Assembly: GCA_021498095.1 (NCBI GenBank)
Contig: JAIZWK010000001.1
Coordinates: 1,290,001-1,322,000, forward strand
DNA: 32,000 bases
Direction: 5' to 3'
From: Candidatus Harpocratesius repetitus
Lineage (GTDB): Archaea > Asgardarchaeota > Lokiarchaeia > Sigyniarchaeales > Promethearchaeaceae
This document shows positions 12,360 through 20,075 of the stretch, piece by piece. A program made the position numbers and the translations under genes. Below the pieces are notes generated by a model. That model saw only the letters and a list, made by a program, of their open reading frames with translations. It did no database searches and was not told where the DNA came from. The first letter of the stretch is position 1. Each line of letters opens with the position of its first letter.

Positions 12360-15212
12360 TTATTCAACTTTAAAATTGAAGTTAAATTTGAATTTGTTGG
12401 TGAAATAATCTTCTAATATATTAGCTGAGGAAATTGAGCATGGAAAATTGACAAAAAGTCGAATATTCTCCAAATTCTTTGAGATTTTTGGCAAGATTTT
12501 CTCTTTAATATTTTCTGAATCTTGCTTTAGGTTGTTTTCATCAATTTCTCTACAAATTATGATATATAATTCCTTATGCCTATTTCCTGTCGAAACATAA
12601 TAATCAACTGCAATCTGATGGGATAATGATAATCTAAACTTTGTTTTTTTTATTCCAGATAATCCTAACATCCAAATAAAACTTTCAACTAAATCAACTT
12701 TCTTTAAAGATTGGACAAATGGCTGATAAGTAAATAGATAATGGTTATTATAACCGTTTTCTTGATTTAATATAATAGAAAATTCAAATCCTTCAAGAAT
12801 AGTTTTGTTTGTTCTTTGATCATTCTTGTTTACATTTTTATTTCCATTTCTCTTTTCATTCTTATTTCCATTCATTTTAAGCAGCTGATAGTATATATTC
12901 CTTGAATAATTGCTTTCTTTTAACCGAAGTTCATTAAAATCCTTTTTTCTTTCATTTAGTATTTTGAAGAAAAATGAATCAGGAAAAGATAAGTTATCTT
13001 TGAAATTCAGAAGAGTACGATTTAAGTTTGGGAATTGGGTGTTGATAAGCACATCATCGAATTGTTCTAATGAAAAATATTGAATTATTGATGAATTTGA
13101 AATTTTTTCTGAATAGATAGGATTTCCTTCATGCCAATTAAGTGAATATGAAATTTTTTTAATTCGAGGAAGGATTACACGTTTGCATAAATCGCTGGAT
13201 TCTATTAAAAAAAATTTCCGAGTATTTCCTTGTTCTTGATTTAATTTAATCACAGCATGTGCAGTAGTACCAGAACCTGCAAAAGGATCCAAGATTAAAC
13301 TTGAATTACTTGAGCCAATTCGTAAACATTTCTCTATTAGCGCAACAGGTTTAGGATGGTCGAAAACTGGTTTTTGAAAAAGGTGTCTTAGATCTATGGT
13401 TCCTGCTTCAGTTCTAACTTCTGGTTCAATCCAAATTGTTTTCGCTTTCTTTGTGGATTTTCTATGTTTTTCATAGATATTCCATCCACCTTCTCTTTTT
13501 TGCCGAGCCACTATTTCGCTGTTTGAAGCATCGTTGGAATCAAGATTTTCTAGTACCTTTTTTTTAGACCAACGCCAGCAATCTTCTATATCTTTACTTG
13601 TGTGGGGAAGAACTTCAATTACATGATTGTCAGTTGGTTTTAACGAAACGGTGCAGAATTGATTTAGGTTTTTTGATTGCGGATCAATATAAAAGGGATA
13701 GAATAAATTTGGTCTATTTGAACGATTAAACTTTGGGTTACGATTCCTAAGTTCTCGAACTATGAAATGACCCTTTGTATCTTGAAATATTTTTCCAGAT
13801 AATTGAGCTGGAAGTTCAAAAAAATTCGGTTTATCAGAATTTAATGTTCCAACAATGATGTATTCGTGAGTTTTGGCAAGTGGGAGATAATCTCGACCTC
13901 CCTTATTAATTTGAACAATAATGGGGCCAATAAGTGAAGATTTTCCAAATTTTTCTGATATTAATAAATCTAATTTTGAATATTCATTATCATCAATTGA
14001 AATGAAGAAATTTAGATTGTGAGTTCCAATTTTTGGAAAATATTCTAAGATTTCATCCAATAGTTGAATCCAATCCGCATCGCTTTGAATGTCGTGATAT
14101 GTAAATTCGCGTCCTCCCGTATTATAAGGAGGATCCATATAAATACAATCGATTTTATTTGCAAATCGAGGTAATATAAATTTTAGAACTCTTCTATTAT
14201 CACTTTGAACGACCCATCCAATAATTTTTTGCTCAAAATTTGGAATTGCAGCAATTAACTCTGAGTAAAATTTTGATGAAAAATGTCGAGTATCAATCAT
14301 TAAATTTGGTTGGTTATTTAAAAAATCTAAAGTTGGTGTATTTTCTACAAACAAATTTGGGAATAATTCTTTCCATTCATTGATTTGCCATTTGTTAATG
14401 AGAATTTCTGGGAAAAATGATTTTGGAATAATATGTAAAGGGATGCAATAATGATTTTCTAAGATTAGTGGTGATTTATTATATAAACAATTGATAATAT
14501 TACTTAATTGAAAAATTTCTTTGCTTTTTTGGCTATTAATTAGCTGTGAATTTGATGTTTTACTTATTTTTTGAAATTCATTTACGGTTTCATATTTTGT
14601 AGAAGTATTAGTTAATTTTGGAATCGAAAATGAAAATTTAGAATTTCGAGTAAAAAAAGTAATATGTTCATTAACCAACTTATGCAATTCTTGCTTTTTT
14701 TTTAAATCTAATTTGGAATAAATTTGGATGAAATTGATCCATTTTATTTCAATTTCATGATTGATTTGTAATTGAATCTGGGATCTGCCATACTTTTTTT
14801 TCAATTCAGTATCTAAGGGTGCTAATTGAAGTTGGAGTAAAAATATATTATTTTTGGAATCAAATTTAAATGGCTCATTTGGGATCATTTGAAAATAGTT
14901 TCTATGACGAATTCTTCGATCCCATGTTTGATTATCAGCAATTTCCTTTTTAAGAATTATTCCAAATTCATAGTTATCCCATGAAAAGCGATATATTTTA
15001 AAATAATCATGAAAATATATTGATCCCTCATCTTTCTTTCGCCATATTAATTTTATTGAATTATTTTCATCAAATTTTAGTATATCGATCAAATTCTCTT
15101 CGTTATTCAAGTTTTTAGCCACTGTAGATTTTAAAGAATCTTGAACAAATTTGGTTAAATGAAAAAAACCACCTTCAGGGATTTGTTTTTTCTTTAAATT
15201 TTCTTCTTTCAT
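12360..15212 (-). CDS. Beta-class amino (N6A/N4C) DNA methyltransferase, type III Mod-like, no Res gene adjacent
   Basis: IYMDPPYNTG (motif IV), HPKPVALIEK, ILDPFAGSGTTAHA (motif I) in beta order; LMIDTRHF and VDLVESF segments typical of large Mod proteins. Confidence 0.9.
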   Translation of the reverse strand: MKEENLKKKQIPEGGFFHLTKFVQDSLKSTVAKNLNNEENLIDILKFDENNSIKLIWRKKDEGSIYFHDYFKIYRFSWDNYEFGIILKKEIADNQTWDRRIRHRNYFQMIPNEPFKFDSKNNIFLLQLQLAPLDTELKKKYGRSQIQLQINHEIEIKWINFIQIYSKLDLKKKQELHKLVNEHITFFTRNSKFSFSIPKLTNTSTKYETVNEFQKISKTSNSQLINSQKSKEIFQLSNIINCLYNKSPLILENHYCIPLHIIPKSFFPEILINKWQINEWKELFPNLFVENTPTLDFLNNQPNLMIDTRHFSSKFYSELIAAIPNFEQKIIGWVVQSDNRRVLKFILPRFANKIDCIYMDPPYNTGGREFTYHDIQSDADWIQLLDEILEYFPKIGTHNLNFFISIDDNEYSKLDLLISEKFGKSSLIGPIIVQINKGGRDYLPLAKTHEYIIVGTLNSDKPNFFELPAQLSGKIFQDTKGHFIVRELRNRNPKFNRSNRPNLFYPFYIDPQSKNLNQFCTVSLKPTDNHVIEVLPHTSKDIEDCWRWSKKKVLENLDSNDASNSEIVARQKREGGWNIYEKHRKSTKKAKTIWIEPEVRTEAGTIDLRHLFQKPVFDHPKPVALIEKCLRIGSSNSSLILDPFAGSGTTAHAVIKLNQEQGNTRKFFLIESSDLCKRVILPRIKKISYSLNWHEGNPIYSEKISNSSIIQYFSLEQFDDVLINTQFPNLNRTLLNFKDNLSFPDSFFFKILNERKKDFNELRLKESNYSRNIYYQLLKMNGNKNEKRNGNKNVNKNDQRTNKTILEGFEFSIILNQENGYNNHYLFTYQPFVQSLKKVDLVESFIWMLGLSGIKKTKFRLSLSHQIAVDYYVSTGNRHKELYIIICREIDENNLKQDSENIKEKILPKISKNLENIRLFVNFPCSISSANILEDYFTNKFKFNFNFKVE
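12821..12880 (-). repeat. In-frame 12-bp tandem repeat x5 in the methyltransferase C-terminal region
   Basis: + strand units cattcttgttta/catttttatttc/catttctctttt/cattcttatttc/cattcattttaa, encoding KMNGNKNEKRNGNKNVNKND. Confidence 0.75.
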
Positions 15213-16070: not shown

Positions 16071-16850
16071 TTAATAATAAGGAGAAGTATCGTCATTCAT
16101 TATCTGCTGTAATTTTCCATAGACTTGATCAACACCTTCATTATATTTCGCAGAAACAGGTAGCAATTCTGAAGTTGCACCAAATTCAATGAATGCACGA
16201 GCTAATGACACTGTATATTCGCGTAAAACTCCATGTTCTAATGATTCAATTGCATCCATTAAAGTAAGATCATTCTCCATCCAAGAAAGAATTCGTTCCA
16301 ATTTTTCCATGCTAAGCAGATCTTTTTTGGTAAGTAAGTTTAATTGTGGCAAATTAGCAAATCGAAATTGAACTGAAGCTGCTAGTAAAAGGGTTGAAAT
16401 CATCCCATTTGGAGTTCCACACAAAAGACTATCATAACAAAAAATGATCCCTCTTTGAATTGAACCAAAACCAAGAGCATTTGCAATCATTGGACCAGAA
16501 TTACGGAAAGAAAAGAGTTCCATCTGACCTGGAGTATCAATAAGCACAATTTCAGGATCATTATATTGATTAATTTCGTATTTTAAATCTTCAATATAAT
16601 CAACCATTCTGTCAGTTGCAGCTATCATTGCTCCATTTGGCCCCAAGCCTGTTTCTTGAATTACTTCATTAACAGTAATATAATCTTGAATATCAATGTC
16701 GGGTTTATATGGCAGATTTTGAACTGCAGGGTCTAAATTGATTGTAATCACTGAAATTTCTTGATTATAAGTGCTGATATAATCTTGTAAGGCTTTCGTC
16801 AATGTGGTTTTTCCTGAACCTGCTGGACCAATAATGTAATTGATATACAT
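16071..16850 (-). CDS. GPN-loop GTPase
   Basis: GPAGSGKT, NLDPA, LGPNG, DTPGQMELF, TKKD. Confidence 0.95.
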   Translation of the reverse strand: MYINYIIGPAGSGKTTLTKALQDYISTYNQEISVITINLDPAVQNLPYKPDIDIQDYITVNEVIQETGLGPNGAMIAATDRMVDYIEDLKYEINQYNDPEIVLIDTPGQMELFSFRNSGPMIANALGFGSIQRGIIFCYDSLLCGTPNGMISTLLLAASVQFRFANLPQLNLLTKKDLLSMEKLERILSWMENDLTLMDAIESLEHGVLREYTVSLARAFIEFGATSELLPVSAKYNEGVDQVYGKLQQIMNDDTSPYY

Positions 16851-17021: not shown

Positions 17022-18368
17022 TTGACCTCTTTAAAAAAAACTCGCTATCGCTTCTCAAAAGATGAATTGAAAGAACTCTTATTTGACTATAATCAAATTC
17101 TCGATGTTTTACCAAGCAATCGACCGAAATCTGTTAAAATTTGGGATGAAACATTAAGAGACGGAGAACAAACTCCTGGTGTTTTTTTAACATTAGAAGA
17201 GAAACAAAAAATTGCACAATATTTGGATGAAATCGGAACGGCAAAAATTGCTGTTGGTTTTCCTGCCATATCTCACCAAGAATTGGAAATTGTGAAAACA
17301 ATCAGTCAGATGGAGTTATCTCATGCAACCATTTTAGGAATTTCTCGACCAAGAACATCTGATATTGATGCTTGTCTGCATGCTGATCTGAAAGAAATAG
17401 TTCTTTTTATGCCTGTGAGTGATCTTCATCTTAAAATTATGAAGATTTCTCATGATGAGCAGTTTAAAATAATTCAAGATGCATTTGATTATGCCACAGA
17501 TCATGGATTAAAAGTGAATTGGGTGTTTGAAGATGGTTCAAGGGCTAGACCTGAACATCTTTTGCGAATTGGTCAAATGATAATCAACAATCATGCAATA
17601 AGTATGATATTGGGTGATACTGTCGGAGTTCTCCAACCTGAATCCAGTGCTTATTTGATTGAAATGTTTAAACGAGAATTAAAATGGAATAATGAATCTA
17701 CAGAGTTAGGAATTCACACTCACAATGATTTTGGTCAAGCAGTTGCAAATACTTGTTCTGCTGTGTTTCATGGGGTAACATTACCACATGTATGTGTTAA
17801 TGGATATGGAGAACGTGCAGGTAATGCTGCTTTTGAAGAAGTAGTTATGAATTTAGAAGGTATGGGGATAAAAACCGGGATAAGACTTGAGAAATTAACT
17901 GAACTTTCTCATATGGTTGAAGAAATTTTCGCGCTTCCTCTTTCAGCTCATAAACCTATTGTAGGAAGCAATGCATTCAGTCATGAAAGTGGTCTTCATA
18001 TAAATGCACTATTAGCTCATCCATCTACATATGAGCCGATTAATCCTGCATGGGTTGGACAAAAACGTCGTTTGTATTTAGGAAAATTTTCTGGATCAAG
18101 TGCTATCGTAAATGCATTAGAGACTAAGTTAAAATTGAGTGATCTTCGCATTCCTCGTTCTGTAATCCGTGATATTGTCACAGATGTAAAAAATTTACAG
18201 CAAGAATCTTCAAAAGATGAGAAGCAGAAATTATTCCAGCAAAATAAGCAATTAGTAGAAAAAATGCGCGCAGGGATAAGTGATACTGAATTTTTCAAAA
18301 TTGCTAAAAAACACGCGGCAAAATATTTGAAAAATACGTGGGCTGAGGAAAATTGCTCTGATAACTAA
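17022..18368 (+). CDS. DRE-TIM acetyl-CoA condensing enzyme (homocitrate synthase/AksA/LeuA family) lacking the LeuA regulatory domain
   Basis: DETLRDGEQTPG, HTHNDFG, GERAGNA, HESGLH, GKFSG; TTG start. Confidence 0.88.
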   Translation: MTSLKKTRYRFSKDELKELLFDYNQILDVLPSNRPKSVKIWDETLRDGEQTPGVFLTLEEKQKIAQYLDEIGTAKIAVGFPAISHQELEIVKTISQMELSHATILGISRPRTSDIDACLHADLKEIVLFMPVSDLHLKIMKISHDEQFKIIQDAFDYATDHGLKVNWVFEDGSRARPEHLLRIGQMIINNHAISMILGDTVGVLQPESSAYLIEMFKRELKWNNESTELGIHTHNDFGQAVANTCSAVFHGVTLPHVCVNGYGERAGNAAFEEVVMNLEGMGIKTGIRLEKLTELSHMVEEIFALPLSAHKPIVGSNAFSHESGLHINALLAHPSTYEPINPAWVGQKRRLYLGKFSGSSAIVNALETKLKLSDLRIPRSVIRDIVTDVKNLQQESSKDEKQKLFQQNKQLVEKMRAGISDTEFFKIAKKHAAKYLKNTWAEENCSDN

Positions 18369-18671
18369 TGAATTAAATATTTTTATATAACATTGCTTAC
18401 TTCAATCTTCTTTTTTTTTTAATGTTCATAAAATATAGTGCAAAAAATTGGTAGCCATTGCGAATATTTTTAGGAAAATCATAACCTTCTTAAATAAGGA
18501 AATAAGATTATCTATGCGAATTTGAAAAGAAGAGAAATCCCAAGGGGGAATTCTAATTTTTTATTATAAATAGAAAAAAAATGAGAGTATTATTTTTGAC
18601 CTAATAAATCGATCAAAAGTATAATTCCAAAAAACATTTTCCATAAAAATTAAAATGTGGAGGTCTAATAA

Positions 18672-20075
18672 TTGAAAACAATAATTCCGCGTCATGGTTT
18701 GGCAGATTTTGAGAAAATGCAACCTTTAACAAAATCAAAAATCATTGAGATATTTGGGCCTCCAGATCAGGAAATTTCTCATGAAAATTATTCAATACAA
18801 ATGAATTATGAAGAAAAAGGGCTGAATTTCTATTATCGAATAAGCGAAAAGGAAAAAGATGCTCCGATTATCACTTGTGGCTTTGTATCTCCATTTGAAG
18901 GGAAAACTGAAGATGGAATTGTCTTAAATAAAAGTACAATGAAAGATGTATTTCGTATTTGTGGAGAAGAAACATGGCTGACTACTGATAAATCACCATA
19001 CTGGTGGGTAGAAGAATCTGGAATTTCCTTTTATGTGCCTAAAGAGAGTAGTAATCGTGATTTTCCATTTAAAGTAGAAGATCATATTGATAAAACTATC
19101 ATACGAATGACAGTTCCTTTAACTTATCGTGAAGAAGAATTTTTAGTTAATGAAGATGGATTATTAATTCGAAGTGTTGATGAATATTGCATTGACGGCA
19201 CTCTCCACGATCCTATAATTGATGAAGAGAGAGCAGAACAAATTTGCAGCAAATGCGGATTGATCTTGGATGATCATATGATCTCCATGGAATATAGTGG
19301 AGAGCGCGCATTTTCAAAAGCAGAGCGCCAAAGAAGGCAGACTCATGGAAGTCCTGTTAATCCTTTAATTCCTGATTTACAAATGGCAACAATGATCGAT
19401 AAGCGCGCTACGATGCCTGATAATCTTCGTAAAGCAATTAAGTGGGATAGTCGTTATTCATGGAAACAACGAAATATGATTCAAGCAACTTCAGAGATTA
19501 AACGAATCGGAGAATTACTTAATCTACCACAACATGTAAAAGTCTATGCAATTAAATTATATAGAAAAGCATTTACACTTGGATTATTGAAAGGAAGAAG
19601 TATTAGAGCAATGGTTGCTGCTTCTATTTACTATGCATGTGGAGCGGAAAAAATACCAAGAACATTACAGAATATTGTTAAAGTTTCTGATTCAACATTT
19701 CATCAGATCACAAAATGTTATCAATCATTAATAAAAGAGTTAAATCTTCCAAGCCCAACTATAAGTCCGAAAAACTTAGTTTCTTCATATATTTCTATCT
19801 TAAATTTACCTCATAATGTAGAAGTGACTGCAGGAAAAATTTTAGATAAATATGAAAAAATTTATTCTCTATCTGGAAAAGATCCCAAAGGATTAGTTGC
19901 TGCCGCTTTATATATTTCCAGCCAATTGAATAAAATAAAGATTTCTCAAACAAAAATATCTCGAACAGTGGGAATTACTGAAGTAACACTACGGAATCGT
20001 TTACGGGAAATGCAGAAATTTGTTCGCAATAAAAAAAGAACCACTTCTAAAAATAAAGTGGAAAAAAAGAAATGA
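18672..20075 (+). CDS. tfb: Transcription initiation factor IIB (TFB) with about 150-aa N-terminal extra domain
   Basis: Zn ribbon (C173/H179, C192xxC195), B-reader ERAF, cyclin repeats (LLKGRSIRAMVAASIYYAC; GKDPKGLVAAALYI), BRE HTH (SQTKISRTVGITEVTLRNR); GGAGG SD before TTG. Confidence 0.92.
   Translation: MKTIIPRHGLADFEKMQPLTKSKIIEIFGPPDQEISHENYSIQMNYEEKGLNFYYRISEKEKDAPIITCGFVSPFEGKTEDGIVLNKSTMKDVFRICGEETWLTTDKSPYWWVEESGISFYVPKESSNRDFPFKVEDHIDKTIIRMTVPLTYREEEFLVNEDGLLIRSVDEYCIDGTLHDPIIDEERAEQICSKCGLILDDHMISMEYSGERAFSKAERQRRQTHGSPVNPLIPDLQMATMIDKRATMPDNLRKAIKWDSRYSWKQRNMIQATSEIKRIGELLNLPQHVKVYAIKLYRKAFTLGLLKGRSIRAMVAASIYYACGAEKIPRTLQNIVKVSDSTFHQITKCYQSLIKELNLPSPTISPKNLVSSYISILNLPHNVEVTAGKILDKYEKIYSLSGKDPKGLVAAALYISSQLNKIKISQTKISRTVGITEVTLRNRLREMQKFVRNKKRTTSKNKVEKKK

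Follow-up and report, generated by a model that had tools for sequence, protein, structure and literature searches.

We describe, in the Asgard archaeon Candidatus Harpocratesius repetitus, a TFB whose chain carries a folded tandem domain of the YfeY/BLIP-like type ahead of a zinc ribbon with an altered first knuckle. The identity of the protein seems settled with high confidence: it is a fusion of single origin, held by selection, between a YfeY/BLIP-like double domain and a TFB paralogue whose first knuckle has co-evolved with the addition. What the fusion does can be stated less firmly, and the explanation towards which we lean on balance is that of a lineage-specific alternative TFB with an extra protein-binding surface at its polymerase-docking end. 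The gene lies in a stretch of 32,000 nucleotides (contig JAIZWK010000001.1, positions 1,290,001 to 1,322,000, forward strand), here called the window, to which all coordinates refer (Table 1). A previous reading of the same DNA, made from the letters alone and here called the sequence-only reading, had already drawn attention to the N-terminal extension and to the unusual ribbon. Our literature search found no paper describing the fusion of a TFB to a BLIP-like domain.

RESULTS

Reading frame and translation start

The ORF listing and translation give a single uninterrupted frame of 467 aa, in which about 150 aa stand N-terminal to, and in frame with, a complete TFB; the GGAGG motif ahead of a TTG start and the frame running open into the TFB, both described in the sequence-only reading, were thus confirmed. 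The codon immediately before the TTG is an in-frame TAA (18669-18671), so that neither an upstream start nor a longer form of the protein is possible. The orthologues all start at the same aligned place, with M-[KIT]-T-I, and all of the others use ATG. These starts bear on the possibility that the N-terminal part is functionless, or that the real translation start is internal to the ORF, which could draw on the TTG codon found here and on the presence of Met146 in the window's genome, a residue that had been named as a potential true start. Met146, however, is replaced by Ile in most orthologues and is therefore not a conserved start, and residues 2 to 11, upstream of it, are conserved and modelled as a strand. 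Taken with the purifying selection on the N-terminal domain and with the failure of both the profile scan of 400 Asgard genomes and the core search to find a split form (see below), these observations leave the notion of a passenger or artefact barely credible.

Table 1. Features of the fused TFB gene and its surroundings, with positions in the window
Feature	Position	Strand	Basis or remark
949-aa protein with N6_N4 DNA methylase domain	12360-15212	-	Upstream; absent from MK-D1 neighbourhood
GPN-loop GTPase (PF03029)	16071-16850	-	Upstream of fused TFB
HMGL-like/homocitrate-synthase-like gene	17022-18368	+	Directly upstream, co-oriented
Conserved intergenic element, TTAAATA-like box; candidate archaeal promoter	18466-18520	+	Conserved in window, L009 (5880-5930) and L012; partly in MK-D1 genus
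GGAGG Shine-Dalgarno-like site	18659-18663	+	8 nt upstream of TTG start; L012 has same GGAGG and spacing
Fused TFB gene, whole ORF	18672-20075	+	ORF listing and translation
TTG start codon	18672-18674	+	Directly after in-frame TAA; orthologues use ATG at aligned position
N-domain unit 1, aa 9-74: two helices, then beta-sheet	18696-18893	+	AF2 pLDDT >90; BamE match; hhalign match to unit 2
N-domain unit 2, aa 75-149; W102 and W111 nearly invariant in family	18894-19118	+	Model, family alignment, hhalign
Linker, aa 150-172; N160, E161 and G163 invariant; predicted packing on N-domain	19119-19187	+	pLDDT 93-97 in full-length model
Non-standard Zn ribbon, aa 173-200: C173, H179, C192, C195	19188-19271	+	Three strands modelled, pLDDT 85-94
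B-reader/B-linker region, aa 201-262	19272-19457	+	Aligns to NCBIfam TFB model; many invariant columns within clade
Two cyclin-like TFIIB repeats, aa 263-450, including C-terminal TEVTLRNR helix	19458-20021	+	PF00382 twice; Foldseek to 1d3u/1ais
Basic C-terminal tail, aa 451-467, and stop codon	20022-20075	+	Translation; orthologue alignment

Distribution, single origin and selection

A scan of 400 Asgard genomes with a profile of the N-terminal domain (N-domain) found it in nine, all of them Promethearchaeaceae and belonging to four of the seven genera. Every match lies in an ORF of 456 to 510 aa, save one that is cut at a contig end, and a tenth genome holds an orthologue of the fused TFB cut by the contig start. 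Throughout the 400 genomes the Asgard N-domain is joined to the same TFB clade, with no split form seen, so the alternative raised by the sequence-only reading, that homologues would prove to be two separate genes, did not hold, and the conservation of the fusion among related Lokiarchaeia, which that reading had named as a point to check, extends to four Promethearchaeaceae genera, including that of strain MK-D1. Searching with aa 1-175 returned three fused relatives of 457 to 475 aa, and an exhaustive search yielded a fused form of 483 aa whose cluster includes QEE14287.1 of Promethearchaeum syntrophicum. When the core alone served as query, the matches with at least 65% identity (fragments aside) were all 416 to 576 aa long, and those with 52% or less were all about 295 to 360 aa.

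In a tree of TFB cores, of the kind that the sequence-only reading had called for, nine fused forms are monophyletic (96/85) and stand beside the ~300-aa CxxC paralogues of Promethearchaeaceae, which form the nearest branch. In a tree of N-domains, 28 fused forms make up one clade (SH-aLRT 99) among non-fused members. One clade for each of the two parts fits one origin of the fusion, and the phylogenies show a single origin in the sense that this alternative TFB appears, from its sequences, to have arisen once, inside Promethearchaeaceae. Within the genus the dN/dS of the N-domain is 0.12 to 0.22 (with dS saturated), and its dN is 4 to 5 times that of the core; the N-domain is shown to be under purifying selection.

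The N-domain is an internal duplication with a YfeY/BLIP-like fold

Sequence models say little about the N-terminal part: aa 1-150 (and 1-170) had no Pfam match at E values up to 1, the N-domain was not recognized by the Pfam models DUF4309, DUF1131 and DUF7738, and its profile had no significant match among PDB sequences (YjgB, E 0.51). Among 54 N-domain relatives, DUF4309 matched 5 weakly (best E 6e-4) and DUF7738 matched 4 (best E 1.7e-3), and a feature search of the ESM Atlas gave, as leads only, bacterial clusters without names and DUF7738 at 0.93. The two related units that the sequence-only reading had seen are real: although the halves match each other weakly by BLASTP (E 0.014), hhalign pairs the family-alignment profile of one half with that of the other at 96.5% probability (E 7.7e-10, 44 columns), and the N-domain is therefore a true internal duplication.

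The AlphaFold2 model of the N-domain, built from a 54-row alignment, has a pLDDT of 90.5 and a pTM of 0.84, and shows two tandem helix-helix-sheet units in a two-lobed arrangement, as in YfeY-like and BLIP-like domains. Its structural matches are (i) Escherichia coli YfeY (DUF1131, 2qzb; Z 11.4, rmsd 2.9 Å, 133 aligned residues), (ii) Bacillus subtilis YjgB/DUF4309 (4ygt; Z 10.5, rmsd 3.0 Å, 121 residues), (iii) the N-terminal domains of the SCP proteins 4ifa (Z 8.9, rmsd 3.8 Å, 119 residues) and 4h0a (Z 8.0, rmsd 4.5 Å, 126 residues), both of the same ECOD group as the YfeY-like matches, and (iv) for unit 1 only, BamE (7txx; Z 6.2, rmsd 3.1 Å, 62 residues); the BLIP-like protein 3d4e is matched weakly (Z 4.7, rmsd 9.3 Å). 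BLIP itself is a tandem of two helix-helix-sheet units that binds another protein. In ECOD, YfeY is classed with DUF4309 and CAP_assoc_N as yfeY-like, a group that the curators link to BLIP, SmpA_OmlA and PepSY (PMC11836899). The matches to YfeY, YjgB and BamE, together with this grouping, bear out the guess of the sequence-only reading that the units resemble BLIP/SmpA-like alpha/beta repeats, and the model supports the assignment of the N-terminal part as a YfeY/BLIP-like double domain.

The likeness has its limits. With YfeY and YjgB the N-domain shares the two-lobed tandem fold and the internal duplication, but it is only 6 to 16% identical to them and is matched by no Pfam model, and both of those proteins are exported, whereas the copy fused to TFB lacks a signal peptide and is joined to a transcription factor. 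With BamE/SmpA_OmlA and BLIP it shares the helix-helix-sheet layout of each unit, but the fused TFB has no beta-lactamase or BAM context.

Insertions concentrate in the loop that joins the two N-domain units: in the MK-D1 genus (L021/P0005) about 25 aa, rich in Lys and Glu, are inserted between the lobes, and a metagenomic form of 571 aa (P0166) has a low-complexity insert of about 110 aa at the same place. Another metagenomic form, of 561 aa (P0170), has about 100 extra residues before the BLIP-like domain, which look winged-helix-like by eye.

An unnamed family beyond the fusion

A word-indexed search with the N-domain alone (90 to 289 aa) gave no relatives, whereas an exhaustive phmmer search retrieved an unnamed family of at least 184 clusters at E 0.001 or better, 45 of them at E 1e-10 or better, with non-fused members 40 to 47% identical to the N-domain (E down to 1.7e-22). 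The N-domain matches the family over its full length, and the conserved positions of the family (G29, Y46, G50, F53, P74, T79, G82, G98, W102 and W111) are all present in it. Most members are about 180 to 200 aa long (median ~200 aa), and a crude test for a hydrophobic N-terminus picked out 97 of 150, of which 22 also carry a lipobox-like motif; in the TFB-fused forms, on the other hand, the chain begins directly with the domain and has no such N-terminus. The window's genome holds no second copy of the N-domain. The domain was probably taken from bacteria, to judge from its one named non-fused homologue, which is from Leptospira, from the hydrophobic N-termini, and from its absence from other Asgard genomes. 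Some non-fused members (P0026, P0013) lack a signal peptide, and the N-domain is therefore not only extracytoplasmic; one such protein has a small Cys4 zinc ribbon at its start and membrane helices at its end.

The TFB part and its altered zinc ribbon

The remainder of the chain keeps the usual order of archaeal TFB and eukaryotic TFIIB (as for human TFIIB in the Pol II initiation complex 7nvu), with a putative zinc ribbon, the B-reader/B-linker and two cyclin repeats; the TEVTLRNR motif of the C-terminal helix is retained as well. PF00382 (TFIIB repeat) matches it twice (E 5.8e-36, 122.8 bits against a cut-off of 23.6), and Foldseek superposes the core of the full-length model on Pyrococcus woesei TFBc (1d3u_B, 1ais_B) with a TM of 0.84 to 0.85 by target, an rmsd of 2.2 Å and 39% identity. 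Two differences set the protein apart from these relatives: the ~170 residues of folded domain and linker ahead of the ribbon, and a first knuckle of C-x5-H where theirs is CxxC or CxxH. The NCBIfam TFB model NF001658 (PRK00423 subfamily), of which positions 24-304 of 312 align to residues 181-449, scores 222.3 bits, below its curated cut-off of 384, which marks the protein as a diverged paralogue and not as a standard TFB.

Ten TFB genes are encoded in the window's assembly, a single contig of 4.36 Mb. The other nine have 15 to 80 residues ahead of the ribbon, and only the copy in the window carries a large folded addition. The closest paralogue (G000:C1:626871-627830) is 48% identical in the core. 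It represents a sister paralogue of about 300 aa (core identity 47 to 50%) that shares the variant wording of the B-reader/B-linker and occupies the nearest tree branch, but is devoid of the N-domain, has CPEC as its first knuckle, and occurs in every genus, also where the fused gene is lacking. The first knuckle varies across the ten paralogues: three have CxxC, five form a divergent clade with a CC-x2-P knuckle and a distinct B-reader (ERRAYT...RRRTEP), and the remaining two are a form with a run of four His at this place and the fused C-x5-H form.

The C-x5-H knuckle reported by the sequence-only reading was found in all ten orthologues read. It runs from C173 to H179, with Gly at the place of the second Cys, and is followed by C192-x2-C195; the fused forms read C-x5-H-x12-C-x2-C, one lineage having C-x6-H with the H-x12-C spacing kept. 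In the ten aligned full-length fused forms, H179 is invariant and D175 nearly so. The first and third presumed ligands are as far apart as in the sister paralogue, and only the second is shifted. The altered knuckle strictly co-occurs with the fusion, all sister paralogues reading CPEC.

These changes could be taken to mean that the protein is a decoy or repressor, which would occupy TBP-promoter complexes without being able to recruit RNA polymerase because its ribbon is remodelled and capped by the N-domain. The missing second Cys of the first knuckle would fit such a role, as would the low scores against the curated models, Pfam Zn_Ribbon_TF (PF08271) giving 20.7 bits against a cut-off of 29 in a partial match to the second knuckle only, and NF001658 likewise falling short. 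His, however, is known as a ribbon ligand from human TFIIB (C-x2-H). Moreover, the B-reader/B-linker, a stretch that works inside the polymerase, is present between ribbon and core, in a wording common to the sister paralogue, and has many invariant columns across the four genera, which would be hard to explain if the protein never entered a polymerase. The strong conservation of the core, the BRE-reading helix motif and the B-reader/B-linker leads us to expect a working initiation factor, and we regard a decoy as very unlikely.

Packing of the N-domain, linker and ribbon

In the full-length model, the linker and ribbon (residues 151-200) have a pLDDT of 85 to 97, and residues 151-170 stand at 63 to 65 when the N-terminal part is folded alone. 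Residues 159-176 are modelled against the N-domain, so that N-domain and ribbon look like one unit. A complex prediction of aa 1-150 against aa 151-215 plus Zn gave an ipSAE of 0.86 (best of three controls, 0.06), a mark attained by 58 of 80 solved complexes and 2 of 110 mismatched pairs in a calibration from which the present test differs in using consecutive pieces of one chain, a custom alignment and a riding ligand; the runs agreed in at least 93% of contacts, and the partner pLDDT was 71. In the predicted interface, residues 159-176 face 37-43, 54, 67-70, 101-108, 111, 128-133 and 147-149. One rigid module is predicted, made up of the N-domain together with the conserved linker (159-172) and the first knuckle (173-176), and in the models the N-domain seems to be built onto the ribbon instead of being loosely tethered. 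The B-reader loop (224-241) has a pLDDT below 50, as is usual for a free TFB, in a full-length model with a pTM of 0.60; the model suggests two rigid bodies (the N-domain, linker and ribbon on the one hand and the cyclin core on the other) joined by a flexible B-reader.

The same packing could be read as a switch in cis, in which the surface between the N-domain lobes would hold the linker and first knuckle as a pseudo-ligand, leaving the ribbon unavailable until a competing protein or small molecule frees it and turns the factor on; such an arrangement could be likened to an anti-sigma domain built into the factor, or to region 1.1 of sigma-70. The predicted contacts to 159-176 involve H37, Y40, S41, Q43, W102, W111 and P132, of which H37, Q43, W102, W111 and P132 are among the 25 most conserved family positions, and the fold relatives BLIP and PepSY are described as enzyme inhibitors (PMC11836899). 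Yet family-conserved positions are not significantly enriched in the predicted interface (0.51 versus 0.46, permutation p 0.22), a result that also counts against the favoured reading, and a permanent structural union would explain the high linker pLDDT just as well. Nor is the N-domain consistently acidic, its net charge being -5 to -10 in four fused forms and +3 in the form from the MK-D1 genus (P0005). We consider a switch of this kind unlikely. The inconsistent charge across orthologues also led us to reject the idea of the N-domain as a DNA mimic or acidic domain.

Neighbourhood and upstream region

The gene order Alba, GPN-loop GTPase, HMGL-like synthase and fused TFB is kept in four genera. 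The HMGL-like gene directly precedes the fused TFB in all four, even in genome G133, with its altered downstream gene order; in two genera that lack the fused TFB it adjoins the next gene at once, and the slot of the fused gene is therefore empty there. Synteny is high overall in Promethearchaeaceae, and we draw no functional tie between the two genes. A link to the neighbouring winged-helix/ear/zinc-ribbon gene was rejected, as that gene also occurs in genera without the fused TFB. The conserved element in the upstream spacer could, from its sequence, be the promoter, which would imply a leader of about 150 nt; a search of the spacer with Rfam gave nothing near threshold.

DISCUSSION

In archaea, alternative TFBs play the part of alternative sigma factors, and to our knowledge little is known of regulation at the protein level for any of them. 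The known extended relatives of TFB and TFIIB (Brf1, Brf2 and Rrn7/TAF1B) carry their additions at the C-terminus. The fused TFB would have come about when a ~300-aa TFB paralogue with a CxxC ribbon was duplicated and one copy gained the N-terminal YfeY/BLIP-like tandem domain, from a donor family that is otherwise mostly exported and lipoprotein-like and for which a bacterial source is probable; the first zinc knuckle would have changed to C-x5-H at the same time. As the B-reader/B-linker and the BRE-reading helix motif are retained along with the cyclin core, the protein presumably still acts in the manner of a TFB, binding TBP and promoter DNA and bringing in RNA polymerase.

The ribbon of TFB and TFIIB binds the polymerase dock in initiation complexes, so that a rigid module on the first knuckle would sit at the polymerase surface. 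The enlarged ribbon module may thus put a protein-binding surface beside the dock. Folds of this group bind other proteins, which favours an added contact surface, for a partner of its own or for regulation; through it the paralogue might touch the polymerase or a regulator in a way of its own and thereby come to serve its own set of promoters or conditions. The sequence-only reading had proposed a specialised TFB that would sense a signal or a partner, a role that we likewise treat as conjecture. While a lineage-specific alternative TFB is the explanation on which we settle, this particular mechanism, an added contact at the polymerase dock, is put forward tentatively. A more ambitious version of the switch, in which the linker and first knuckle of the factor itself would be kept on the conserved surface between the lobes of a BLIP-like module, to be released when a cellular protein or metabolite takes their place, so that the assembly of initiation complexes at a dedicated regulon would be gated directly at the polymerase-docking end of a TFB, must be called a long shot. 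If a switch were nonetheless true, it would amount to sigma/anti-sigma control in archaeal form, based on a bacteria-derived domain, in the closest culturable lineage to eukaryotes.

To conclude, the alternative TFB described here has a folded domain of a protein-binding type at the very point of contact between TFB and RNA polymerase, together with a corresponding alteration of the zinc ribbon, and this arrangement has been kept under selection in four genera. It is a clear instance of an Asgard archaeon having incorporated a domain, probably bacterial, into its core transcription machinery. One of the genera with the fused TFB holds the cultured Promethearchaeum syntrophicum MK-D1, which makes the role of the protein testable, and the fusion offers a handle on how these organisms partition transcription among some ten TFBs.
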